This document shows, piece after piece, positions 2,944 to 44,954 of a stretch of DNA of 44,954 nt; the first letter of the stretch is position 1, and every line of letters begins with the position of its first letter. The position numbers and the translations under genes are program-made. Origin of the DNA: a phage; the sequence record OZ503098.1; one strand, given 5' to 3'. Under the pieces are notes generated by a model that did not search any database, was not told the origin of the DNA, and worked only from the letters and a program-made list of their open reading frames with translations.

Positions 2944-3005
2944 TATGTTTTCCTTTTTAGCGGGGGCGGTATTGCCCCCGACGTGATTAAGATACTGCAA
3001 CCAAC

Positions 3006-3476
3006 CTATTGGTTGCAAGTGAATTTTGCAACGTTTATCGCATAAATTTTCGGGACCAGATCGCCGCACGCCCGACGAATTGCCGCGATGTTCTTCGGAC
3101 AGTCTTCAATGATGACCAGTTCCGACACGTCCGCATAGCAGACCATTTTGAACACGGCGCACGCCTTAAACTCTGGTGGCGGGGTGTCGTCCAGCATGTG
3201 GCGCATAAACAACCGGCCTGCCGGGAAGACCTCCAATTGCTTGGCGGTGGTGTCCCAACATTCTAGCTGCCGGTTGGTCAGATACGCGATCTCGAAGCCT
3301 TGCTCTTTGTACATGCGCAACAGCGGCAGCATATCCATGTTCAGGTCTTCGCGTACATGCGCTTTGTGCCACTTTGCCCAAAAGGTTGATTTCGTTTTTA
3401 TCCCCGGCACCAGGTCGGCACGCGCATCGCTTGAACCGTTAATAACGCCATCCAAATCGCAAATAAGTAATTTCAT
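3006..3476 (-). CDS. HAD-superfamily phosphatase/nucleotidase-like protein
   Basis: N-terminus MKLLICDLDGVI contains the HAD motif I (DxDG[TV]); 156 aa. Confidence 0.55.
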   Translation of the reverse strand: MKLLICDLDGVINGSSDARADLVPGIKTKSTFWAKWHKAHVREDLNMDMLPLLRMYKEQGFEIAYLTNRQLECWDTTAKQLEVFPAGRLFMRHMLDDTPPPEFKACAVFKMVCYADVSELVIIEDCPKNIAAIRRACGDLVPKIYAINVAKFTCNQ

Positions 3477-4648: not shown

Positions 4649-4677
4649 AATATAATGCAACCAATCTAATTATGCAA
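4649..4677 (-). promoter_or_regulatory. Sigma70-like promoter built from two direct ATTGGTTGCAT copies (TTGCAT, 17 bp spacer, TATATT); a GC hairpin (4626-4646) lies in the leader
   Basis: Minus-strand reading: ATTGGTTGCATaattagATTGGTTGCATTATATT; the first copy supplies the -35 and the -10 follows the second copy after a 17-nt spacer. Confidence 0.35.
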
Positions 4678-5005
4678 CCAATTTACGAATAAAATTTGGG
4701 TCGCGTGCAACGTCTACCAGATACAGGTTACTAATGCGGTTGCCGTAGTGCCCTGGTGTGCGCTGGCGGCACACAACGGCGAAGCCGGGAGGGATTGTAT
4801 TGCCAGTCTCGATAATCCACGCTACGCGCGCGCCAGATAGCGTCTTGCCGTTGCACTCGATGCGCGTGCCGCCATCGGCAGTGTTGAGGTTGCCAATCTT
4901 ACATCCGGTGGACTTCAGGCGAATGACGCCGGTCTTGCTGTCGTAGGAGAATAACTGGTTAGTCATTGCAACCGAAAAATCAATGGCCTCGAATGTAGTA
5001 TTCAT
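4670..5005 (-). CDS. HNH-like endonuclease (degenerate) / hypothetical protein
   Basis: 111 aa; FSYDSKTG...NGKTLSGARVAWIIETG...GHYGNRISNLYLV follows the layout of small free-standing phage HNH proteins; catalytic residues are not all canonical. Start overlaps the stop of the upstream gene. Confidence 0.4.
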   Translation of the reverse strand: MNTTFEAIDFSVAMTNQLFSYDSKTGVIRLKSTGCKIGNLNTADGGTRIECNGKTLSGARVAWIIETGNTIPPGFAVVCRQRTPGHYGNRISNLYLVDVARDPNFIRKLVA

Positions 5006-7353: not shown

Positions 7354-7377
7354 CAAAAATGGCGGGACAAGCCCGCC
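7354..7377 (-). terminator. Hairpin plus U-run on the minus strand (internal terminator or attenuator)
   Basis: GGCGGG-loop-CCCGCC stem followed by ATTTTT on the minus strand; the stem contains the GCGGGACA word used in the iteron arrays. Confidence 0.4.
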
Positions 7378-7384
7378 GTATTAA

Positions 7385-7558
7385 TTATTTTTGCTCTGCG
7401 CGGTAGCGGCGCTGCCGTTCGCGCTCTTTTTTATTGCGGCACGATTTGCACTCTGCCCGATACCCATCCGGGCTTCGCGCAGTCTTCCCGGTGTATTTAT
7501 GGAACTGTGATAGCGGTTTAACGCAGCCGCAATTACTGCAACGTTTTTCTTCAATCAT
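7385..7558 (-). CDS. Small zinc-ribbon protein (57 aa)
   Basis: CSNCGC...ECKSCRNKK gives two CxxC pairs and a basic C-terminus; GAGGA RBS before ATG 7558. Confidence 0.35.
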   Translation of the reverse strand: MIEEKRCSNCGCVKPLSQFHKYTGKTARSPDGYRAECKSCRNKKERERQRRYRAEQK

Positions 7559-7598
7559 CTCTAAAATCCTCGATATGGCTAACCGGCACACTATACCG

Positions 7599-7877
7599 CT
7601 ATGCGACCAATTCAGCAACCAATAAATCACAGTCGGCGATGTTGTCTATGACGCGAACGTCCGCACCGCGGCGGGCCATCCGCTCATGCTCGCGTACCTG
7701 GTGCGGCTTCGGTTTTCCGCCGGGGCGCTTCACTTCGACGAACACTATTTTGCCGTTGATGATGATAATCAGATCGGGCGCACCCGCGCGCCCCTCCCAG
7801 GCCATTTTGCGGCAGAATCCGCCTACCTCTTTCACCCGTCGCATCAGGTGACTTTGAATCTTGCCTTCTGGTGTCAT
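7599..7877 (-). CDS. VRR-NUC domain nuclease
   Basis: APDLIIIINGKIVFVEVKRPGGKPKPHQ matches the VRR-NUC PD-(D/E)xK core (D...E-V-K); ATG 7877 abuts the upstream stop. Confidence 0.6.
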   Translation of the reverse strand: MTPEGKIQSHLMRRVKEVGGFCRKMAWEGRAGAPDLIIIINGKIVFVEVKRPGGKPKPHQVREHERMARRGADVRVIDNIADCDLLVAELVA

Positions 7878-11060: not shown

Positions 11061-11849
11061 TTAACGGCGGCGACGTTTGCGTGGCGCTTCGTCTTCGTCG
11101 TCGTCCTCATCTTCGTCATCGCGTGGCTTACGACGTTTGCGAGGTTTTTCATCTTCCTCATCGTCGTCGTCATCGCGGCGCTTGGACTTTTTGGACTTGC
11201 GCGGCTTGTCATCTTCATCATCGTCATCACGACGTTTTGACTTCTTAGCCTTGCGCGGTGCTTCGTCTTCGTCTTCGTCGTCGTTGTCCAGGTCTTCATC
11301 GGAGCAAGAAGAACCACCACCACCGAAGGATTCGCCGTCATCGCGGAAGCGCAGACCCAGCAAGCCAGCACCGAGTCCCTTGCCGTTGGTATTGTTCCAC
11401 GCCCAGATATCGAGTGACACGTTGCAATAACAACCGGAGTAGATCTCCTGGCCTTCGATCTCGTCGCCGTCGATGGTCAGGCCTTGTTCAGTCTGCTTCT
11501 CGCCGAGTGACGTTTGAATGATCGGCTGTTTGAACGATTTAGCGTTGATGTACAACATGCCTTCGAATTCTTCGGTTACTTCATCGCGCTCGTCGCCGTC
11601 GCGAACTGCGCATTCCTTAGAATCCTGGGCGTAGTGGCGGTCCATCCACTTATCGGCATTCTTCTCAGATTTCAGCTTGTCGGTGAGCACTGCGCGCGCT
11701 GCCGCTTCCACTTTGTCCACCTGCGGATCTTCTTTATCCAGAAGAATCACGGCGCGGTATGCTGGTTTTTGTCCATCCTGTTTAGGGGTATCACGTTCCC
11801 AAATTTTCAGGAAACATACGCGCACATTTTTCAGGTTGACTTTAGCCAT
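11061..11849 (-). CDS. Putative single-stranded DNA-binding protein (DUF2815-like) with a long acidic/basic repeat tail
   Basis: N-terminus MAKVNLKNVRVCFLKIWE resembles the DUF2815 phage SSB-like N-terminus; located next to a DUF2800-like nuclease and PolA. C-terminal about 80 aa are three reiterations of DDDDEDD / KPRKSKKSKRR blocks. ATG 11849 has a GAGGAA RBS. Confidence 0.45.
   Translation of the reverse strand: MAKVNLKNVRVCFLKIWERDTPKQDGQKPAYRAVILLDKEDPQVDKVEAAARAVLTDKLKSEKNADKWMDRHYAQDSKECAVRDGDERDEVTEEFEGMLYINAKSFKQPIIQTSLGEKQTEQGLTIDGDEIEGQEIYSGCYCNVSLDIWAWNNTNGKGLGAGLLGLRFRDDGESFGGGGSSCSDEDLDNDDEDEDEAPRKAKKSKRRDDDDEDDKPRKSKKSKRRDDDDDEEDEKPRKRRKPRDDEDEDDDEDEAPRKRRRR
11080..11290. repeat. 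In-frame tandem repeat (about 60-bp units, three copies) encoding the acidic/basic tail of the SSB-like protein
   Basis: Repeated GTC/GTCGTC/ATC and CTT/TTT/GCG runs at DNA level; the protein shows the RRDDDDEDDKPRKSKKSKRRDDDDDEEDEKPRKRRKPRDDEDEDDD periodicity. Confidence 0.5.
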
Positions 11850-11939
11850 TTTCCAATTCCTCATTTTCACATGTATCGGGGTTATTGGAAGCCACCCCGT
11901 TCGGCTTGGTTGCTAATCTACTTGGTTGCGCCTGAGCGG

Positions 11940-12182: not shown

Positions 12183-13605
12183 TGCTTAAGTCCTCATCAG
12201 TGGCTTCAGACCACACAGGGCGCGGGTCGTCTATTGGGGCTAATACCGGTTTAGCCGGTGCGCGCGTGATTTTATCACACAGCTTCGCCCACACTTTCGG
12301 TTTTTCGTCCTTCAATACCTTCTCGGCATCCGTAGGGCTGAGCAATGTTTCTTTGTACATCACATCGCGCTTGATCCGGGCCTTCGTGAAGATTTCAATC
12401 ACTTCGCTCTCGTCCGCCCACTTACGGATCCCTTCCTTACCGGCAACCATCTTGAGGCCCAGCGATTCGCCATCGCCCGCCATGACCGCCTTGAATACCG
12501 CGGACTCGATAGCCTTGATGTGCTGGCGCATTGCGTCCAGGCCTTCATAAGCCTTGCGCAGTTCCGCAGCGCTCATAGCACCGGGGGCCGCTTCTTTCTT
12601 ACCACGCTTCGCACGTCGTGCCGCCTTCCTGGCTTCGCGGGCTATATTGCGGTCATGGTTGGCGCATTCTTCCTCTGTCGCAATACTCACGTCGTCGCCC
12701 AGGTCTTCGTCGGTTGCCGTTGGGTGTGTCATCGTGTCGATTGCGGCCTTAGCGCGGGCACTACACTGATCCGCAAATCGGCACCACTGGCACGCATCAA
12801 CGCTGGGGCGGAAGTCGGCACGGGTAAGCCCCTTCTTGCCTCGGGAATACGACTCCAGTGCGGCGATAGCACGCTTGGATGCGAACTTCGCGAATATCTC
12901 CAGCGCTTCTACCGAAATATCCCACTCCGACGCCCCGCCGCAATACGGCTGGAAGATAACCAGTCGCACGGTCGTAATGTCGTACATAGTTTGCAGCTTG
13001 CGCAGCAGGCCGAGCGCGTACAACATAAGCTGTTTGTTCTCTTTCGCCTCGACCTTATGACGCCCGGTCTTCAGGTCGCCAACAATCAGCATGTACGTCC
13101 CATCGGTCTTTTTCATGACCATGACCATATCGGCAGTACCGAACGTTTTAATCCTGTTGCCGTCGATCTCGTAGCCTGAGTGAAGGACGCGGGTCAGATC
13201 GGCGTGCATCTCAAGCTGAACAAACTCCGCCACTTCGATGAGCGGTCGCCAGTGGTCTATGTACGCGTCGCACTGTTTCACCATGTCGTCGTTGACCAGT
13301 ACGCCGCCTTTCGGTGCTTTCGGGTGTGCCTTTACCGGCCCCTTGCCTTCGTTCTCGACGTAGCACCCTTTATACGTCTTCGCGGTTATCAGCTTCTCAC
13401 CGGCTATAATGCGGTTTAGCACCACCTCCGATACGGTGTGCATACTCGTACCGTTAATCGCGGCTTGCCCGGATTCGTTCGGGATATCTTTTTCTACCAC
13501 CAGGGCGGCTGGGCAACCCATCCATTTTTTAGCACCGGATGGCCCGAGTAATGAGTGTTCCGTATTGCTGCCGGATTGCGTCTTACGTTTTGGTTTAATC
13601 GCCAT
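12175..13605 (-). CDS. DUF2800-like PD-(D/E)xK (Cas4/RecB-like) nuclease
   Basis: N-terminal LLGPSGAKKWMGCPA matches the characteristic DUF2800 opening (SxSGAxRWxxCP); C-terminal Cys cluster (CQWCRFADQC); paired with the DUF2815-like gene. Confidence 0.55.
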   Translation of the reverse strand: MAIKPKRKTQSGSNTEHSLLGPSGAKKWMGCPAALVVEKDIPNESGQAAINGTSMHTVSEVVLNRIIAGEKLITAKTYKGCYVENEGKGPVKAHPKAPKGGVLVNDDMVKQCDAYIDHWRPLIEVAEFVQLEMHADLTRVLHSGYEIDGNRIKTFGTADMVMVMKKTDGTYMLIVGDLKTGRHKVEAKENKQLMLYALGLLRKLQTMYDITTVRLVIFQPYCGGASEWDISVEALEIFAKFASKRAIAALESYSRGKKGLTRADFRPSVDACQWCRFADQCSARAKAAIDTMTHPTATDEDLGDDVSIATEEECANHDRNIAREARKAARRAKRGKKEAAPGAMSAAELRKAYEGLDAMRQHIKAIESAVFKAVMAGDGESLGLKMVAGKEGIRKWADESEVIEIFTKARIKRDVMYKETLLSPTDAEKVLKDEKPKVWAKLCDKITRAPAKPVLAPIDDPRPVWSEATDEDLSNE

Positions 13606-14223: not shown

Positions 14224-14769
14224 TTAATCTTCCAGTTCGAAATAAGTTTCGACGATTTCTTTAAGATCTTTGTGGAAGTCTTCGACGTCTTCATCTTCCA
14301 GCTTGGCGATTGATTTGATCTCAAACGATTCCAGCAGGTCGTCAAATTCGTCGTTCGCGTCGTCGTCGTCACCACCCGCGATAATAGCGGCGTACTGTTT
14401 GATTTCGTCGCGCATCTCTGCCAGCGGGTCGGCATCTTTCTTACCTTTGCCTTTCGCCGGTGCTTTTTTACCCTTCGCGGGCTTCACGTCATCGGCATCA
14501 TCGTCGTCGTCGTCATCTTCTACGACTTCTTTTTTGGCCTTGCCTTTAGACTTGGTTTCTTTTGCCGCGCCTTTTTTCGTTTTAGGCGTATCTTCGACTT
14601 CGTCCTGATCGTCGTCGTCTTCGACTTCAGTCTCCGGCTTGGCCTTGCCTTTCTTAGCAGTGCCGTTTGCTTTTGGGTCTACGGCAGCGCCAACGGTTTC
14701 ATAATGCTTAGCGATGGTTTCCAGTGCTACTACGCCGCGAGTAATCAGGTTTACGATTTGTTCAAACAT
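14224..14769 (-). CDS. First leftward early gene: highly charged low-complexity protein (181 aa) with alternating poly-Asp/Glu and Lys-rich blocks
   Basis: ATG 14769 with GGAGATATACC RBS; EVEDDDDQDEVEDTPKTKKGAAKETKSKGKAKKEVVEDDDDDDDADDVKPAKGKKAPAKGKGKK; first gene downstream of the divergent control region. Confidence 0.55.
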   Translation of the reverse strand: MFEQIVNLITRGVVALETIAKHYETVGAAVDPKANGTAKKGKAKPETEVEDDDDQDEVEDTPKTKKGAAKETKSKGKAKKEVVEDDDDDDDADDVKPAKGKKAPAKGKGKKDADPLAEMRDEIKQYAAIIAGGDDDDANDEFDDLLESFEIKSIAKLEDEDVEDFHKDLKEIVETYFELED

Positions 14770-15033: not shown

Positions 15034-15363
15034 ATGAATGTAAACGACGCAATCGAAATGTTAACGAAGACTGTTAGCAGTGAAACAAGCCGGTCATGGG
15101 CGTATACCGATGCCGTGGGTGCGGTGCTATTTGAAATCGAACGTCTGCGACTTACCGAAAAAGAATTGCGCGCGAAGCTGGAATTACTCAACGGTACTGC
15201 AGCAAGCAAGCTGCAAAAGCACAATGAAGAAATGGAAGAATACAAAAAGCAGGTTATCCGTTTGCGCGCCGAGGGCAAATCCTGGGCGATGATTGCCGAG
15301 TTGACCGGAATTAATCAGAGCACTGTGCGCTCCTGGGTGCGCAATAATAAAACTTCCAAATAA
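15034..15363 (+). CDS. Helix-turn-helix DNA-binding regulator (sigma-70 region 4 / LuxR-type HTH at the C-terminus)
   Basis: C-terminal RAEGKSWAMIAELTGINQSTVRSWVRNN is a typical HTH (region-4-like); N-terminal coiled-coil-like segment; GAGGA RBS; first gene of the rightward block. Confidence 0.6.
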   Translation: MNVNDAIEMLTKTVSSETSRSWAYTDAVGAVLFEIERLRLTEKELRAKLELLNGTAASKLQKHNEEMEEYKKQVIRLRAEGKSWAMIAELTGINQSTVRSWVRNNKTSK

Positions 15364-15367
15364 GGCT

Positions 15368-17638
15368 ATGACCATGAGTTTAATTAAATTCGCAGTAACA
15401 AGACCCGCTAAAAAAGGCGAAAAAGCCAGGGCGGAAAACTTCCAGATGACCACCGATGAATTTTTCGAATTTATCAAAGATGCGAAAGAAATCTCCTCGG
15501 TGCATATCAATAAGACGGAAGATAAAGCCGAGTATGCGCGCCGCAAGCGTAAGGCCGATGGCATCGTGGCATATACCAGTGACGGCCTTCGCCGCAAGAC
15601 CAGTGCGGTGGACCGCTCGATCCTGTTCTTCGATATTGACCGTACCGACACCCGCACCCTACGCCGCTGCCGTAAGGCGTTCATTGACGCGGGTCTGGAA
15701 CACGTATTTCACACCACAACCGGCGACCGTCACCCACTGAAAGGAGGCACGCGTTGCGCCCGTTTCCTGGTGTTAACTGACAAGCCTGTACCGGCTGAAG
15801 ACCTGGGCCGCGTCCAGTATGCACTATTACACCAACTGGGTCTGTCAGATGTGGACTTCGACGATTGCACGAAAGACACAAACCGCCTGATGTACCTGCC
15901 TCACCAGCAGTCTGTTATTAAGTGCCACTACGGCAAGCGCGCCCGCGTCCGCCGTCTGCTCCGCCTGGCTGATAAGCTGGGAGTTGAGAAAGAGGAAGTA
16001 CGCCGCGAGCTTACCCAGGGCGACGACGCAGTGGCAGACGGCATTCTGGACTGGTGCTTCCAGGCAGGATTCGAGGAGTTATCTTCCGGGCGGGGCTTTG
16101 AAGTGCCGTGCCCGAACGAACATCTGCACAGCGGCGAAGGGTCGACGGCTATCATGGTCAAGGATGGCGAGATCCGTTTCAAGTGTATGCACACCGGCAA
16201 CGAGTGTTGCTCTGAACTGAATAGACACCAACACCTGGCGCTACGTCTTATCGGCATCCCGGACCACCTGAACGTCGAGCCACACAATATGTCCCGTAAG
16301 CAAATCGCCGCCATCCTTCCGGGGCTGGACGACGAGGAAGTCGAATCCTTATATGAACATATTGTTGATGCGGTTGGCGACGGCGAAGAATACGGCGTGT
16401 GCACCGATGCGGATCTGGATAACGAGCCGGTCGCGCTGTTCAGTAAGCACGACACGATTATCGAGGGGTTGATTAACTTTAAATCGACCTGGTACATGGC
16501 GGGTGAGTCGAATATCGGTAAGTCTTTCTATGTGCTGGGCCAAATGGGCGCGGTTGCCGCCGGTATTCCGTTTGGTGGTGCGAAGGTCGTCCAGTCTCAT
16601 TGCTTCTATTTCGACGCGGAAGGTGGCGAAGCCTCCAACCAGCGTAAAGAAGCATTGCAGATTAAATACGAGCACGACCTGGACAAGCTGCACATTATAG
16701 ACCTGCAGTCACGCGGCTGGGATATCACCAGCAAGTCCGGCTTGCGCGAAGTTATCAGTTTTATCAACCGCACCGCTAACGGCGAGCCGGTTGGCCTGGT
16801 GGCGTTCGACTCACTCAACCAGACTGTTGCGTTGCGGTCCGCCGAGGCTAAACCGTTCGACGAGAACAACGCCAGCGATATGGGCGAAGTGGTCAAAGCG
16901 CTGAAGGCCATCGCGGAAAACACAGGTGGCAGTGCGGGCGTCATTCACCACCCGGCGAAAGGTGCAAACGGCAGCAGAACCCCACGCGGGTCCGGCGCGC
17001 TGCATGGTGCTGTCGATTCCGCTTTCTTCCTGGAACAGCCGGACGACAACCAGCCCGGACAATTGAACCTGTATCACGAAAAGTCACGTAACGGCATCAA
17101 GCAAGCGCCGCGCGGCTTCGTCCTGCTCAAGTGCAAAGTTAAGGTGGATCTCCGCAAGTCAGAAGCGTTCGAGGCGCACCAGTCCACCAGCACCGGGCCA
17201 GACTTCGGGGATGTGGTTGCCGGTTGGGACGTCAAGCCGATCGCCTCCACGCCACGCGACGAGACTCTCTACCTCGTACCGGTTGCCCTGGCACCGTTCG
17301 CTATTGAACAGGCGAAGGCGGCAGGCAAGGCCGCGGTTAAGGAAGAGAACACCGCCGGACCGCGCAACGGAAAAGAGAAAGTGCTTTATGCTGCACTGGA
17401 AAAACTGATGGAAGATAACCCGGACCATACTGGATTCAGTAAATCGGCGATTGTCCGCCAGGCGGGACTCGCGAAAGGTGGCACGTCGACGAAGGCAATC
17501 GACGATATGGTGGAGCGCGGCGTGATAGGTTTTTACACCGATCCGCACACCGGGGCCATCTATGGGTCGTCTAATTTGGTCATCAAATCGGATATCCCAA
17601 TCACGCTTTCAGCGACCGATGAAGACTTAAAAGATTAA
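15368..17638 (+). CDS. Primase-helicase: archaeo-eukaryotic-type primase-like N-terminal domain fused to a RecA-like P-loop NTPase
   Basis: N-terminal LFFDIDRTD (acidic DxD-type motif), central Cys/His cluster (CPNEHLHSGEG...CMHTGNECC), C-terminal Walker A GESNIGKS and Walker B-like LVAFDSL. Confidence 0.7.
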   Translation: MTMSLIKFAVTRPAKKGEKARAENFQMTTDEFFEFIKDAKEISSVHINKTEDKAEYARRKRKADGIVAYTSDGLRRKTSAVDRSILFFDIDRTDTRTLRRCRKAFIDAGLEHVFHTTTGDRHPLKGGTRCARFLVLTDKPVPAEDLGRVQYALLHQLGLSDVDFDDCTKDTNRLMYLPHQQSVIKCHYGKRARVRRLLRLADKLGVEKEEVRRELTQGDDAVADGILDWCFQAGFEELSSGRGFEVPCPNEHLHSGEGSTAIMVKDGEIRFKCMHTGNECCSELNRHQHLALRLIGIPDHLNVEPHNMSRKQIAAILPGLDDEEVESLYEHIVDAVGDGEEYGVCTDADLDNEPVALFSKHDTIIEGLINFKSTWYMAGESNIGKSFYVLGQMGAVAAGIPFGGAKVVQSHCFYFDAEGGEASNQRKEALQIKYEHDLDKLHIIDLQSRGWDITSKSGLREVISFINRTANGEPVGLVAFDSLNQTVALRSAEAKPFDENNASDMGEVVKALKAIAENTGGSAGVIHHPAKGANGSRTPRGSGALHGAVDSAFFLEQPDDNQPGQLNLYHEKSRNGIKQAPRGFVLLKCKVKVDLRKSEAFEAHQSTSTGPDFGDVVAGWDVKPIASTPRDETLYLVPVALAPFAIEQAKAAGKAAVKEENTAGPRNGKEKVLYAALEKLMEDNPDHTGFSKSAIVRQAGLAKGGTSTKAIDDMVERGVIGFYTDPHTGAIYGSSNLVIKSDIPITLSATDEDLKD

Positions 17639-17719
17639 TTTTTGCGCGCATTGGTTGCCAAATTGCGTGCTTTTAGGTGGTCGTATTGGTTGCCGTGTAG
17701 TGTAAATATAGTGAATAGT

Positions 17720-17905
17720 TATGCAATAAAACTGCATAAACTAAGCGGGACAAAAAGCGGGACAGACAGGAGGCGGGACAAAGCGGGACAGCACCCCTGT
17801 CCCGCCCCGGATGACGCGGCCTGGCGAGGAGCGGGACAGCGGGACAGCACCCCAGTCTTTCAGACTAGACGGGGGGTCTGGCACCCCCCTCGTCTGAGAC
17901 TGCAT
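17720..17905. repeat. Iteron/hairpin array 1: at least six direct GCGGGACA copies, inverted TGTCCCGC copies and a G6/C6 hairpin, preceded by TGCATAAA
   Basis: GCGGGACA at 17745, 17757, 17773, 17783, 17831, 17839; inverted copy at 17798; AGTCTTTCAGACT palindrome and GACGGGGGG-tctggca-CCCCCCTCGTC hairpin at 17853-17895. Non-coding (the TTG-start ORF 17642..17998 is rejected). Confidence 0.7.
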
Positions 17906-18061
17906 AAAATCCGGGATTGCATAATACACGGCAACATGATGCAAATTGCGGTCGTCGGTGAACTAGGCAACCAATGCGAGTTGCAGAATGGTGGGTGAAA
18001 AATGCAGTTTGCAGTCACAGCAGATAGCGATCGACTTTTTCATACGCGTGATTAATATTGG

Positions 18062-18090
18062 TTGCACCCGCCCTGGCACCCTGCTATATT
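18062..18090 (+). promoter_or_regulatory. Sigma70-like promoter TTGCAC-17-TATATT embedded in two ATTGGTTGCAC motif copies, upstream of gene 18119
   Basis: -35 TTGCAC 18062-18067, 17-bp spacer, -10 TATATT 18085-18090; motif copies at 18057-18067 and 18088-18098. Confidence 0.45.
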
Positions 18091-18118
18091 GGTTGCACAC
18101 CAACATGAGGACTGAACA

Positions 18119-21074: not shown

Positions 21075-21104
21075 TTGACTCGCAACCAACATAGGGGCCA
21101 TACT
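21075..21104 (+). promoter_or_regulatory. Promoter-like element TTGACT-18-CATACT overlapped by two (T)GCAACCAA(T) motif copies
   Basis: Motif copies sit in the spacer and at the start site, i.e. operator-like placement; precedes a strong GGAGGAG RBS. Confidence 0.35.
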
Positions 21105-21133
21105 GCAACCAATCAACTGGAGGAGTAATCAAG

Positions 21134-26017: not shown

Positions 26018-27104
26018 TCAATATATGGCGGATCGAATGATTCGCCGACACATCTTCACCCAGCGCCTGAGTAATGACCAGGCGCGGAGGGTGCTGGCTA
26101 TGTGGGAGAAGTTCCGGCCTACATTACTAGGAAAGCTGACTGAGTTACTTGATGGCAAATCGTCAATGCATAACAAGGCACTTTCCACTCTGTTAACGCA
26201 ACTCGACAAGACCGTCAAAACGGAACTGCGCACCGAGTTTAAGGCGCTGGCTGAAAGCCTTCAGGAGTTCGCCGACACCGAGGCTGATTATCTCGCCGAC
26301 ACATTAACGGCAGCGATCCAGCCCGCGGTCGCCGTACCGGCTGTTGAGGTGGTGGGTGTTGTGACCGGCGCGCAGATCGCGGCGACTGCAATGAAAAACC
26401 CGTTCCAGGGTAACACCATGATGCAGTGGCCCGATTCACTTTCCGAGTGGACCAGGACGCAGATCGGCAATCAGGTGCGCGCCGGATTCATCCAGGGCAA
26501 GCCGACGATGGAAATTATCGCGGATGTGAGGCGCGCGCTAGGCGGTCGAAGTGCGCAAGCAATCTCAAGCGTTGTTAAGTCCGCAGTCAACCACTATGCG
26601 GCGACCGCCCGCGAATTAATGGTGAAAGCTAATGACGATATTCTCGAAGGTCGCCAATGGTTATCTACATTGGACACGCATACTTCTCCCATGTGCCAGC
26701 TACGCGATCGCCTGTTTTATCCGGTTGATGTTACTCCCGATACGAAAGGGAAGCGAGGCGGAAAAGTGGTGGCGGGATCACAATATGGCGCCGGTCCGGG
26801 CAAGCTACATTATTGCTGCCGCTCGACGGAGACGTGGAAAGTCAAAGGTATGGAAGATTGGCCCAGTGGTAAGCGTCCGGCACTGAAGGCCGACGCAGGC
26901 AGATTGCTGAGTGAGCATGTCGACGCGCAGACTGATTTCTTCTCATGGGTGCAGCGCCAGCCGCGCCATATCCTGGAGGAATTATATGGAGTGCAACGCG
27001 CCGACCAGATTATGCGCGGCGTGAAAGTGCCGAAGATGTTCACCGATTCTGGCGAACTGATGTCTATTGCACAGCTTAAAAACCGGGGGTTATGGCGTGA
27101 TTAA
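26001..27104 (+). CDS. Head morphogenesis protein (Mu F-like / SPP1 gp7-like minor head protein)
   Basis: Follows the portal gene; LSTLDTHTSPMCQLRDRLFY matches the conserved D-x-R-T...C core of this family. Confidence 0.6.
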   Translation: MAKTINQYMADRMIRRHIFTQRLSNDQARRVLAMWEKFRPTLLGKLTELLDGKSSMHNKALSTLLTQLDKTVKTELRTEFKALAESLQEFADTEADYLADTLTAAIQPAVAVPAVEVVGVVTGAQIAATAMKNPFQGNTMMQWPDSLSEWTRTQIGNQVRAGFIQGKPTMEIIADVRRALGGRSAQAISSVVKSAVNHYAATARELMVKANDDILEGRQWLSTLDTHTSPMCQLRDRLFYPVDVTPDTKGKRGGKVVAGSQYGAGPGKLHYCCRSTETWKVKGMEDWPSGKRPALKADAGRLLSEHVDAQTDFFSWVQRQPRHILEELYGVQRADQIMRGVKVPKMFTDSGELMSIAQLKNRGLWRD

Positions 27105-28316: not shown

Positions 28317-28345
28317 TTTTGTGTCCTCGTTGTTGGTGTGCAACC

Positions 28346-28375
28346 AATATATTGCAACCAATACCCGGATTGCAA
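28346..28375 (-). promoter_or_regulatory. Promoter for the moron: TTGCAA-18-TATATT on the minus strand, overlapping two ATTGGTTGCA copies
   Basis: Minus-strand reading: TTGCAAtccgggtATTGGTTGCAaTATATTGGTTGCAC; same architecture as the 18062-18090 promoter. Confidence 0.4.
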
Positions 28376-33890: not shown

Positions 33891-34215
33891 CGGAGCGGGA
33901 CAGGCGGGACGTCCCGTTTTGTCCCGCACCTCTAAAACTGCATATTTACTCACCACAATTGCATAAATCAAAAGCGGGACAGGGGTGCTGTCCCGATCTG
34001 TCCCGCCCCCAAAATGTGAATGTCTATTCAGTTTTATTGCATAAAGTAAGCGGGACAAAAAGCGGGACAGAATGAGGCGGGACAAAGCGGGACAGCACCC
34101 CTATCCCCGCCAGTGCTGCCGCGGGTTTTAGCCGATCGGGACAGGCGGGACAAAGCCCAGTCTTTCAGACTAGACGGGGGTCAATGGCCCCCCTCGTCTG
34201 AGACTGAATAAGGTT
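33891..34215. repeat. Iteron/hairpin array 2 (expanded copy of array 1) inserted between the chaperone and tape measure genes
   Basis: GCGGGACA/TGTCCCGC copies at 33895, 33904, 33926, 33975, 33991, 34002, 34051, 34063, 34079, 34089 and 34153 (approximate); block 34048-34107 nearly identical to 17742-17802; hairpin block 34157-34215 nearly identical to 17850-17905; TGCATAA words at 33939, 33960, 34038, 34251. Confidence 0.7.
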
Positions 34216-34274
34216 TGTTTTAAATTCGCTGATACAATGACCGACGGCAACTGCATAAAAAGGGGGACTGCATA

Positions 34275-44406: not shown

Positions 44407-44954
44407 ATGGCAGCGGGTACGCTCTCTGTAACGAACAATAGCAAGGCAGTAGTAGGGGTCGGCACAACGTTTACCGCACTTAAAGCTGGCGACTTTCTGT
44501 CGCTGGTAGTGGGGCAAGTACCCTACACTGTTGCGATCGCGTCCGTCGAAAGCGACACCGCGCTTACGCTGGTGCTGCCGTTCGACGGCCCCACGGCAAC
44601 CGGCCTTGCCTGGGACGGCATCAAACGCGACACCATGTCACTGGCAACGATGGGCGTAACCGTCCAGGCACAGAAAGCATTGCGCTTGATGATTGCTGAC
44701 GAAAACAACTGGCGTGCAATCTTCGGTAACGAGGAACAGATCTCGGTCACGCTGCCGAGTGGGCAAGTTGTGCAGGGTATGTCATGGGGATACCTGTCCA
44801 GCCTGCTTAAAGACGTGGGCCCGGTGGAGTTGCAGGCTATCGCAGACCGGACCATCGCGGCTAAAAACGAGGCGGAAGGATTCCGTAACGAGGCGGAAGG
44901 ATTCAAGAACACCGCCAACTCTGCGAAAGATGCTGCCGTAGCCGCTAAGACCGC
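44407..44954 (+). CDS. Tail fibre protein, N-terminal part (continues as 3..1745 across the junction)
   Basis: ATG 44407 with AAGAGGA RBS; frame open to the window end and in phase with the 3..1745 ORF through the duplicated 127 bp. Confidence 0.65.
   Translation, partial: MAAGTLSVTNNSKAVVGVGTTFTALKAGDFLSLVVGQVPYTVAIASVESDTALTLVLPFDGPTATGLAWDGIKRDTMSLATMGVTVQAQKALRLMIADENNWRAIFGNEEQISVTLPSGQVVQGMSWGYLSSLLKDVGPVELQAIADRTIAAKNEAEGFRNEAEGFKNTANSAKDAAVAAKT
44828..44954. repeat. Exact 127-bp duplicate of window positions 1-127 (circular closure overlap or terminal redundancy)
   Basis: Base-for-base identity of 44828-44954 with 1-127. Confidence 0.9.

Follow-up and report, generated by a model that had tools for sequence, protein, structure and literature searches.

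Phage and plasmid origins are typically built of iterons and an unwinding element, and they adjoin a gene whose product acts in replication and has a DNA-binding domain. In the satellite phage P4, ori and crr are two separate sites that carry the same octamer-type word and are both needed in cis. The P4 alpha protein is a multifunctional primase-helicase whose C-terminal winged helix binds short repeats (PMC4234260). In RSF1010, oriV comprises iterons, an AT-rich stretch and priming hairpins, together with the RepA helicase and the RepB' primase (PMC4234260). The archaeal plasmid pRN1 has a stem-loop origin directly 3' of the gene for ORF904, a primase-helicase-winged-helix protein preceded by a small repressor gene (ORF56), and its authors pointed to similar stem-loops after the replication genes of some phages (PMC4234260). 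[quoted passage not shown] One of them is located at the replication genes, the other is intergenic in the late structural cluster and bracketed by transcription signals; oriR is thought to stall forks and to switch replication to concatemer synthesis (PMC6316719).

The window, i.e. the whole analysed stretch of 44,954 nucleotides, is the complete genome of an E. coli phage of the genus Dhillonvirus (an HK578/SO-1-like coliphage). Since bases 1-127 recur exactly at 44828-44954 in a self-comparison, it represents a circularly assembled genome of 44,827 bp. Two of its non-coding gaps, called site A and site B (Table 1), lie 16.3 kb apart and carry the same module: an AT-rich box (GTGAATAGTTATGCA-N7-TGCATAA) is followed by four direct copies of an 8-bp word, an inverted word, two adjacent direct words, an imperfect hairpin of ~50 nt and finally TGCATAA-type boxes and ACGGCAAC. 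On balance, we favour the view that both sites are composite elements of the replication-origin type that serve in initiation, the most likely reading being an iteron origin accompanied by a second origin or an auxiliary site.

Site B resembles its SPP1 counterpart in that its repeats and AT element interrupt late structural genes (in the gap between the tail chaperone and the tape measure), with a terminator-like unit on one side and an extended -10 element on the other. The replication modules are of different types: SPP1 relies on a separate origin-binding protein, a loader, a DnaB-type helicase and the host primase, and its oriL is situated within gene 38, whereas the phage studied here encodes DNA polymerase A, a gp2.5-like SSB and an AEP-helicase. 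Here it is a primase-helicase fusion that supplies the candidate binder as one of its domains, and the element contains a conserved hairpin. The likeness of this protein to P4 alpha is limited to the predicted winged helix, the primase being of the AEP fold and the helicase of the RecA type (AAA_25); at the level of the DNA, sites A and B share one word, GCGGGACA, and the words of the two sites switch together in other lineages. The RepA-type (AAA_25) helicase and the RepB'-like AEP primase resemble those of the IncQ plasmid RSF1010. RSF1010, however, uses three separate proteins, with RepC bound to 20-bp iterons, and two ssi hairpins on opposite strands, whereas here the functions are apparently fused, the words measure 8 bp and each module has one long hairpin; a separate RepC-like gene was not recognised in the window with Pfam or PHROG. 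The gene order is reminiscent of pRN1, with a small DNA-binding protein, then a primase-helicase-winged-helix protein and a stem-loop directly downstream. The element looks like a fusion of themes from SPP1, P4, RSF1010 and pRN1. New relative to these systems would be, as we propose with moderate confidence regarding function, an iteron-plus-hairpin origin, the fusion of an AEP primase, a RepA helicase and a winged helix, and a conserved second site in the tail operon.

Organisation and conservation of sites A and B

Exact copies of GCGGGACA occur 20 times in the window, compared to an expectation of 2.02 +/- 1.42 (dinucleotide shuffles; at most 5 in a single shuffle). Sixteen of them fall within the two intergenic gaps, seven in site A (17745-17846) and nine in site B (33895-34152), the latter having three additional copies with one mismatch. 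When site A was compared with the rest of the genome by BLASTN, 17733-17907 aligned with 34038-34211 at 84.4% over 179 nt (E 6.5e-46). The enrichment and this match exclude a chance origin of the modules and establish that the second array, which the original prediction had placed after the primase-helicase gene, is real. The duplicated blocks had been described as near-identical. Both matches were recovered (57/61 positions for 17742-17802 versus 34048-34107 and 50/59 for 17850-17905 versus 34157-34215), but at 84% overall the wording was too strong, and self-alignment confirmed the duplication with wider boundaries than first given (~17711-17908 versus 34016-34212). The similarity extends well beyond G/C runs of low complexity, as it spans the AT-rich box, the ordered, equally spaced words and the ~50-nt hairpin. 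The small minus-strand hairpin at 7361-7377, in whose stem the word had also been noted, has the canonical features of an intrinsic terminator (GGCGGGcttgtCCCGCC and then ATTTTT), so that the GCGGGACA which it contains is incidental.

Table 1. Positions of the features discussed, and words found at the corresponding sites of related lineages.
Feature	Position	Strand	Remarks
Early genes	1.8 kb-15.3 kb	minus	DNA polymerase A, gp2.5-like SSB, exonuclease
Plus-strand genes	from 15.0 kb on	+	HTH protein, helicase-primase, small genes, lysis, terminase, head, tail
HTH protein (HTH_23 / sigma-70 region 4-like), first gene of the helicase-primase operon	15034-15363	+	109 aa; Pfam; PHROG 9366
Helicase-primase	15368-17638	+	756 aa; AEP/Prim-Pol primase, Cys/His cluster, AAA_25 helicase, predicted C-terminal winged helix
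Predicted winged-helix domain (codons for residues ~668-740)	17369-17587	+	proposed reader of the 8-bp word
Site A, entire non-coding gap 3' of the helicase-primase gene	17639-18118		480 bp
Site A, AT-rich box GTGAATAGTTATGCA-ATAAAAC-TGCATAA	17711-17739		palindrome TTATGCA-N7-TGCATAA; proposed unwinding element
Site A, four direct GCGGGACA (17745, 17757, 17773, 17783) and inverted word (17798-17805)	17745-17805	+	
Site A, two adjacent direct GCGGGACA	17831-17846	+	pair present here in every lineage examined
Site A, long imperfect hairpin: mini-hairpin AGTCTttcAGACT and GC hairpin GACGGGGGG..CCCCCCtCGTC	17853-17902		dG -28.4 kcal/mol, z -4.15
Site A, TGCATAA boxes (17901, 17918), then ACGGCAAC (17928-17935)	17901-17935	+	
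Sigma-70-like promoter TTGCAC-17-TATATT within paired TATTGGTTGCA boxes	18062-18090	+	predicted from sequence; genes from 18119 on
Site B, entire non-coding gap between the tail-assembly-chaperone frameshift product and the tape-measure gene	33891-34274		384 bp
Site B, extra unit 1: GCGGGACAGGCGGGAC/GTCCCGTTTTGTCCCGC	33894-33930		
Site B, extra unit 2: inverted copy of 17769-17805	33973-34010		inverted repeats at 92% and 91%
Site B, AT-rich box (GTGAATGTCTATTCAGTTTTATTGCATAAAG)	34016-34049		counterpart of the site A box
Site B, four direct words (34050, 34062, 34077, 34087), degenerate inverted word, TCGGGACA (34136), GCGGGACA (34145)	34050-34152	+	
Site B, copy of the hairpin	34158-34206		dG -29.1 kcal/mol, z -4.03
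Site B, extended -10 TGATACAAT, then ACGGCAAC	34230-34251	+	-10 element invariant in 15/15 genomes
Word GCGGGACA			window, all Dhillonvirus, 68%-identity lineage L036/L059
Word GTGTGGCA			L040, L044
Word GTGTGCCA			L041
Word GGTGCCA			L045
Word GGGGGAGA			Salmonella phage SE1, L062, L074
Word TCCGACA			L067, L075
Word AGGGATAA			L069
Word CGGACAA			L070, L072, Pantoea phage AH01
Word GGGGATGA			L076
Word GGGGATC			L037, L042
Word TTGCGA			L038, L043
Word TTCCGCACA			Serratia phage Otaku

Both sites qualify as iteron arrays, with at least three copies of a short word that is conserved relative to its spacers. The direct words are spaced 12/16/10 in site A and 12/15/10 in site B; start-to-start, the full series read 12, 16, 10, 8 and 12, 15, 10, 9, respectively, and spacings of 11 and 17 are found in SE1. 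The spacing pattern itself is conserved, and regular helical phasing of the word repeats was not found. In site A, the fourth direct word (17783) and the inverted word next to it make up GCGGGACAGcacccCTGTCCCGC. In site B, unit 2 and 34076-34107 constitute a 32-nt inverted repeat flanking the AT box.

A candidate AT-rich unwinding element is present at both sites. According to nearest-neighbour calculations, the segment 17703-17743, which contains the AT box of site A, ranks first genome-wide as the least stable duplex of 30 bp and of 40 bp, and the AT box of site B ranks ~8th to 10th among non-overlapping windows of these two sizes. In the AT box, GAATAGTTATGCA is retained even where the identity of the helicase-primase is 37-47%, and the centre of the palindrome occurs in either orientation among genomes. 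Segment 17901-17935 aligns with the site B segment TGATACAAT..ACGGCAAC. The 21-nt TATATTGGTTGCACACCAACA recurs inverted at 28331-28351.

Comparison with homologous phages bore out the expectation that both copies are conserved (~16/16 sampled Dhillonvirus genomes; 159 phage records). A scan of IMG/VR with the hairpin word yielded 29 loci in ~16 genomes, nearly all of which carry both sites. With identities of 80-99%, site A matched 159 phage records and the helicase-primase ~150, and almost all of these belong to Dhillonvirus of Escherichia or Shigella (HK578, JL1, EK99P-1, SO-1, BASEL Bas15). In the alignments, the CGGGACA cores are almost invariant and the spacers variable, and the entropy of word columns is lower than that of spacers both at site A (0.24 vs 0.42, p 0.004) and at site B (0.18 vs 0.48, p 2e-6). 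Orthologous sites are 87% (A-A) and 89% (B-B) identical, whereas A and B share 81.0% within the same genome and 79.6% between genomes. Because orthologues resemble each other more than A resembles B in one genome, the duplication is old and both copies have been maintained; strong concerted evolution is dismissed by the near-equality of the same-genome and between-genome values. Judged from these alignments, it is selection that keeps both copies and not frequent gene conversion.

Word switching and the candidate reader

A non-coding gap of 360-650 bp was found 3' of the helicase-primase gene in every relative examined, and the layout of this gap is the same down to 37% helicase-primase identity, with about a dozen words seen (Table 1). 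TTGG-NN-GC-type boxes, one or two GTGAATAGTTATGCA boxes, three to four direct words and inverted words form the 5' part; two adjacent words, the mini-hairpin and GC hairpin, a TTATTCA/TGCATAA box, ACACGGCA[AG]C and a promoter form the 3' part. ACACGGCA[AG]C is conserved 3' of every module; the octamer ACGGCA[AG]C, which likewise follows every module, is strand-biased and 10-fold over-represented. That the word can be exchanged while the layout stays fixed points to a co-evolving protein as the partner that recognises it.

The second site follows the first. Contig ERR11172925_9173 starts inside its site B, of which it has four GTGTGGCA words, the hairpin and GCTGATACAAT ahead of the tape-measure ATG, and ends inside its site A with GTGTGGCA words; the 27 nt shared by both ends indicate that the assembler broke at the repeat. 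In SRR26384698_5047 (47% helicase-primase identity), the module between chaperone and tape measure contains the words of its own site A (GGGAT[AC]/GATCC). The phages Otaku and AH01 have a smaller second site, located in a head-gene gap and again with their own site-A word, and SE1 has a single site only. Since site B changed wherever the word of site A changed, one specificity factor should serve both, and we hold it to be very probable that A and B are a functional pair read by this factor. The conservation of both copies, the lower variability of the word columns and the co-switching of site B all agree with the earlier proposal of a functional pair in preference to chance. In the subgroup L063-L071, apparent repeats downstream turned out to be ordinary terminators without a module. 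A tblastn search with the tail chaperone for further chaperone/tape-measure gaps returned mostly T1-like phages and was unhelpful.

Two proteins of the operon were considered as readers of the word. The HTH protein is labelled 'transposase' in several records, a label that rests on an HTH match only. Its HTH segment (VIxLREEGKSWAMIAELTGINxSTVRSWVRN) is invariant in six lineages that have four different words between them, so it cannot set word specificity and was rejected as the word reader. All six lineages keep TTGGTTGC, and the HTH protein fits better as a candidate binder of this sequence. The helicase-primase varies along with the word. Its Cys/His cluster, ahead of the AAA_25 helicase of the RepA/DnaB type, is invariant, and the C-terminal domain is its fastest-evolving part. 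A sequence search of the PDB with the helicase-primase gave no match, and the winged helix was assigned via fold prediction.

The start of helix 3 of this winged helix differs wherever the word differs. Protein P0007 shares helix 3 with P0010, and the word predicted on this basis, GTGTGGCA, was confirmed on the P0007 contig; with 88% overall identity between P0007 and P0010, the test has little power. Outside the C-terminal domain, P0011 shares more with P0007 (77%) than with the protein of the window (69.5%), whereas its C-terminal domain is more similar to that of the window protein, which has the same word (59.6%), than to that of P0007 (54.3%). Two different helix-3 sequences accompany GCGGGACA, and the lineages compared are few and related, so that shared ancestry confounds the covariation. 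We find the covariation between C-terminal domain and word suggestive and are inclined to regard the predicted winged helix of the helicase-primase as the word reader.

Alternative readings of the modules

The modules could be transcriptional boundaries or regulatory cassettes, in which the hairpins end or process the upstream transcript, the words act as operators or as a roadblock and the 3' promoter restarts transcription, i.e. of the small, lysis and packaging genes after site A and of the tape-measure and tail-tip genes after site B. We consider this a serious rival, though rather unlikely, and it may coexist with an origin. In line with such a role, the modules are located at operon boundaries and point in the direction of transcription in all lineages; in Otaku and AH01, the second site is found immediately 5' of structural genes. 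At site B, the invariant extended -10 TGATACAAT is found 45 nt upstream of the tape-measure ATG (34275), and the segment around it is the probable promoter of the tape-measure and distal tail genes; GCTGATACAAT is likewise present in the GTGTGGCA lineage. The HK578 record annotates a rho-independent terminator in the inner part of unit 1 (first inverted word pair), where the small CGGGACGTCCCG+TTTT is a weak fit to such a terminator, and unit 2 contains a terminator-like match on the minus strand (33995-33975). At site A, the second TGCATAA box may be a weak -10-like element, and the sigma-70-like promoter further downstream was absent from a strict consensus scan. The ACACGGCA[AG]C after every module would be a possible transcript start.

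Several observations speak against transcription control. The main hairpins of both sites have no U-run and received no call in terminator scans, and consensus scans for promoters and terminators at these hairpins gave nothing over shuffle expectation. The only obvious regulator nearby, the HTH protein, remains unchanged when the word changes, and 7-12 sites over 100-260 bp exceed what operators usually need. Moreover, nowhere in the genome should the duplex melt more easily than at the AT box of site A, and the position after the helicase-primase gene is conserved in very distant relatives whose downstream genes differ. The origin reading is plausible given this conserved position, the least stable duplex, the predicted winged helix and the precedents described above.

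The hairpin bears on a second alternative. Its stems match between sites A and B and its loops differ (TCTGGCA in A, TCAATGG in B); within the genus, the stems of G-run and C-run are invariant and the loop is variable. The mini-hairpin is fully Watson-Crick paired in 16/16 modules, in which four stems occur (AGTCT/AGACT, CTCCT/AGGAG, TCATC/GATGA and TCCTC/GAGGA), and the inner stem shows paired substitutions (GGGGG/CCCCC, GGGTG/CACCC, GGGAG/CTCCC). Stems were verified directly in each sequence; MAFFT alignments of the divergent hairpins were out of structural register and pair counts from them meaningless. Retention of the hairpin through compensatory change suggests that it acts as a nucleic-acid structure.

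The functional unit might then be a structured RNA transcribed at both sites, for example an element for RNase III processing or stability or a cis-acting RNA of the HK022 put type, with the words being mere stem sequences. The put sites of HK022, putL and putR, occur once in each of two operons, and sites A and B are arranged likewise. The strong hairpin (z about -4) has compensatory stems and a variable loop, and it is placed between cistrons of co-oriented operons. We nevertheless judge an RNA element to be improbable. Rfam 15 gave no match at the gathering score over the window, only sub-threshold hits to generic miRNA precursors (E-value mode). The majority of the words, as direct repeats, do not pair, and the one inverted word of site A has a degenerate counterpart in B. 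An RNA hairpin needs neither a G-rich arm that never changes strand nor an AT box that is always adjacent, and concerted switching of the words at both sites within an unchanged layout is a hallmark of protein-DNA recognition.

A pac signal, a site-specific recombination site, the remnant of a MITE-like mobile repeat or chance and low complexity are highly improbable explanations: the element is repeated and rich in palindromes, a small HTH protein annotated as 'transposase' is encoded nearby and assemblies break at the modules, but there are only two copies in fixed syntenic places that stem from an old duplication, the 'transposase' label reflects an HTH match, and the assemblies break because A and B repeat each other. 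A cos or pac site was rejected, as Dhillonviruses package by headful (PMC9022532) and the small-terminase gene lies far from both modules, at distances of 4.7 kb and 11 kb. Likewise, an origin of the element from the host or from plasmids was discarded, with 0 matches in 5,426 E. coli genomes and 72,556 plasmids.

Proposed initiation and previous records

If the sites are replication origins, the predicted winged helix would bind the words and the helicase-primase would oligomerise on the array, the adjacent AT box would open and the helicase would load. The primase would then begin synthesis at or near the hairpin, whose part would correspond to that of the ssi hairpins in IncQ plasmids or of the stem-loop origin in pRN1. 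The primary origin would be site A, beside the helicase-primase gene. Site B, which lies inside the tail operon and is flanked by a weak terminator and a probable promoter, would serve as a second origin or as an array for auxiliary binding, in a role comparable to that of P4 crr or SPP1 oriR. The cumulative GC/AT skew has its minimum at ~15 kb and is uninformative on the origin, since it merely mirrors the switch in gene orientation.

More tentatively, a large clade of enterobacterial siphophages (Dhillonvirus, Guernseyvirinae-like phages and metagenomic relatives) may use a single-polypeptide initiator that fuses three IncQ functions, namely the reading of iterons (by the winged helix), a RepA-like helicase and a RepB'-like AEP primase, and a modular origin in which AT boxes and hairpin are conserved and the 8-bp words can be swapped. 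The roughly dozen pairs of word and helix would then form a specificity code that switches at two sites, the second site being a programmed auxiliary origin or a fork barrier among the structural genes, and ACGGCA[AG]C could be the start word of the primase. Dhillonvirus and its Salmonella, Serratia and Pantoea relatives are common in therapy and model collections. The exact candidate origins, the candidate initiator domain and the natural variants of word and helix provided here make the question of where their replication starts testable. If the proposal holds, phage replication would gain an architecture of fused IncQ-like functions, an iteron-plus-hairpin origin and an SPP1-like second site. 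Orthogonal pairs of origin and initiator would become available for phage engineering, and the breaks of assemblies at both places would be explained.

One GenBank record, that of the Sodalis phage SO-1 (NC_013600.1), had already drawn attention to the repeats: both gaps are annotated there as repeat_region, 'region A' and 'region B', with a note on direct, inverted and palindromic repeats and on the similarity of region B to region A. The naming is crossed, i.e. site A corresponds to 'region B' and site B to 'region A' of SO-1. Our literature search found no published analysis of these repeat regions, queries with the word GCGGGACA retrieved primer matches only, and the repeats are unmentioned in the Dhillonvirus genome papers examined. 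For Edwardsiella eiAU, the gap appears in a published table.

Recurrent octamer

The octamer ACGGCA[AG]C is present in 57 copies in the window, as compared with 5.7 +/- 2.1 in shuffled sequences (whole-genome counts). The plus strand carries 42 of these and the minus strand 15. The plus-strand copies recur about 1 kb apart. Because the octamer is found in all three reading frames as well as antisense to genes, the signal resides at the level of the DNA. One copy follows each of the two modules (AT-rich box, array of 8-bp words and hairpin) proposed as origin-type elements in site A, the non-coding gap after the helicase-primase gene, and in site B, the tail chaperone/tape-measure gap. In every one of the relatives, ACACGGCA[AG]C is located 3' of the hairpin, and 8-mers related to ACGGCA[AG]C rank at the top of the k-mer lists of the genomes of the distant relatives Otaku (Serratia) and SE1 (Salmonella). 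The octamer may serve as a start word for the primase, or else act as a Chi-like or another polar signal.

Coordinates of the sequence features (window, unless a relative is named)
Feature	Coordinates	Remark
ACGGCA[AG]C after module, site A	17928-17935	one per module
ACGGCA[AG]C after module, site B	34244-34251	one per module
TTGGTTGC boxes	2997-3016, 4657-4681, 11906-11929, 17651-17693, 17967-17974, 18058-18096, 21082-21112, 28340-28361, others	
Example box pair TATTGGTTGCAccc..TATATTGGTTGCACACCAACA	18055-18105	exact inverted copy at 28331-28351
32-nt inverted repeat, site B	33976-34007 / 34076-34107	91% complementary; flanks AT-rich box and first two words
Otaku (L004)	15380-15501 and 26300-26550	
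AH01 (L077)	12200-12380	
TCGTCGTC/TCATC repeat runs	11071-11290 and 14267-14652	plus-strand reading
Cys/His cluster C-P-N..H..C.H..C..N.HQH, helicase-primase (15368-17638)	residues ~248-289	invariant; between AEP and helicase domains

Paired boxes at promoters

The box TTGGTTGC occurs 22 times in the window and ATTGGTTGC 15 times (0.56 expected). The TTGGTTGC copies are mainly paired, intergenic and located at promoters, and in relatives TTGGTTGC is replaced by TTGGCAGC, TTGGCCGC or TTGGCTGC. A candidate role for TTGGTTGC is that of an operator of the 109-aa sigma-70 region 4-like HTH protein, encoded by the first gene of the helicase-primase operon.

Inverted repeats and second sites

The long inverted repeat of site B could form a large extruded cruciform whose loop holds the AT box, and the repeat accounts for the sub-threshold matches to miRNA precursors in Rfam. 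The small minus-strand hairpin at 7361-7377, which the original prediction had tied to the word arrays through the word in its stem, turned out to be unrelated to them: it consists of GGCGGGcttgtCCCGCC followed by ATTTTT, comes after the gene at 7385-7630 and is a canonical intrinsic terminator.

The second sites of Otaku and AH01 (a distant relative from Pantoea) are located in a head-gene gap instead of the gap between the chaperone and tape-measure genes, and a long GC-rich stem accompanies each of them. The two sites of Otaku have the flanks TATGCT...AGCATACCATT in common.

Sequence records and coding features

Bases 1-127 are identical to bases 44828-44954. This exact 127-bp terminal duplication is a circular-assembly overlap rather than a biological repeat; the genome is in fact 44,827 bp long. 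Short-read assemblies of these phages are broken by the A/B repeat, a practical caveat for Dhillonvirus genomes called 'complete'; the metagenomic contigs L040, L045 and L079 terminate within word arrays. MG065648.1 ('Campylobacter phage A144') and 21 'Campylobacter' records from the search with the tail chaperone share 96-99% identity with Dhillonvirus or T1-like phages of E. coli. Their host assignments are probably erroneous or the result of contamination.

The TCGTCGTC/TCATC runs are ordinary coding low complexity: on the minus strand, which is the strand of the genes, they read as GAC/GAT/GAA codons and thus specify acidic stretches in the products of the gp2.5-like SSB gene and of a neighbouring small gene. 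The Cys/His cluster of the helicase-primase probably serves the primase as a zinc-binding module.
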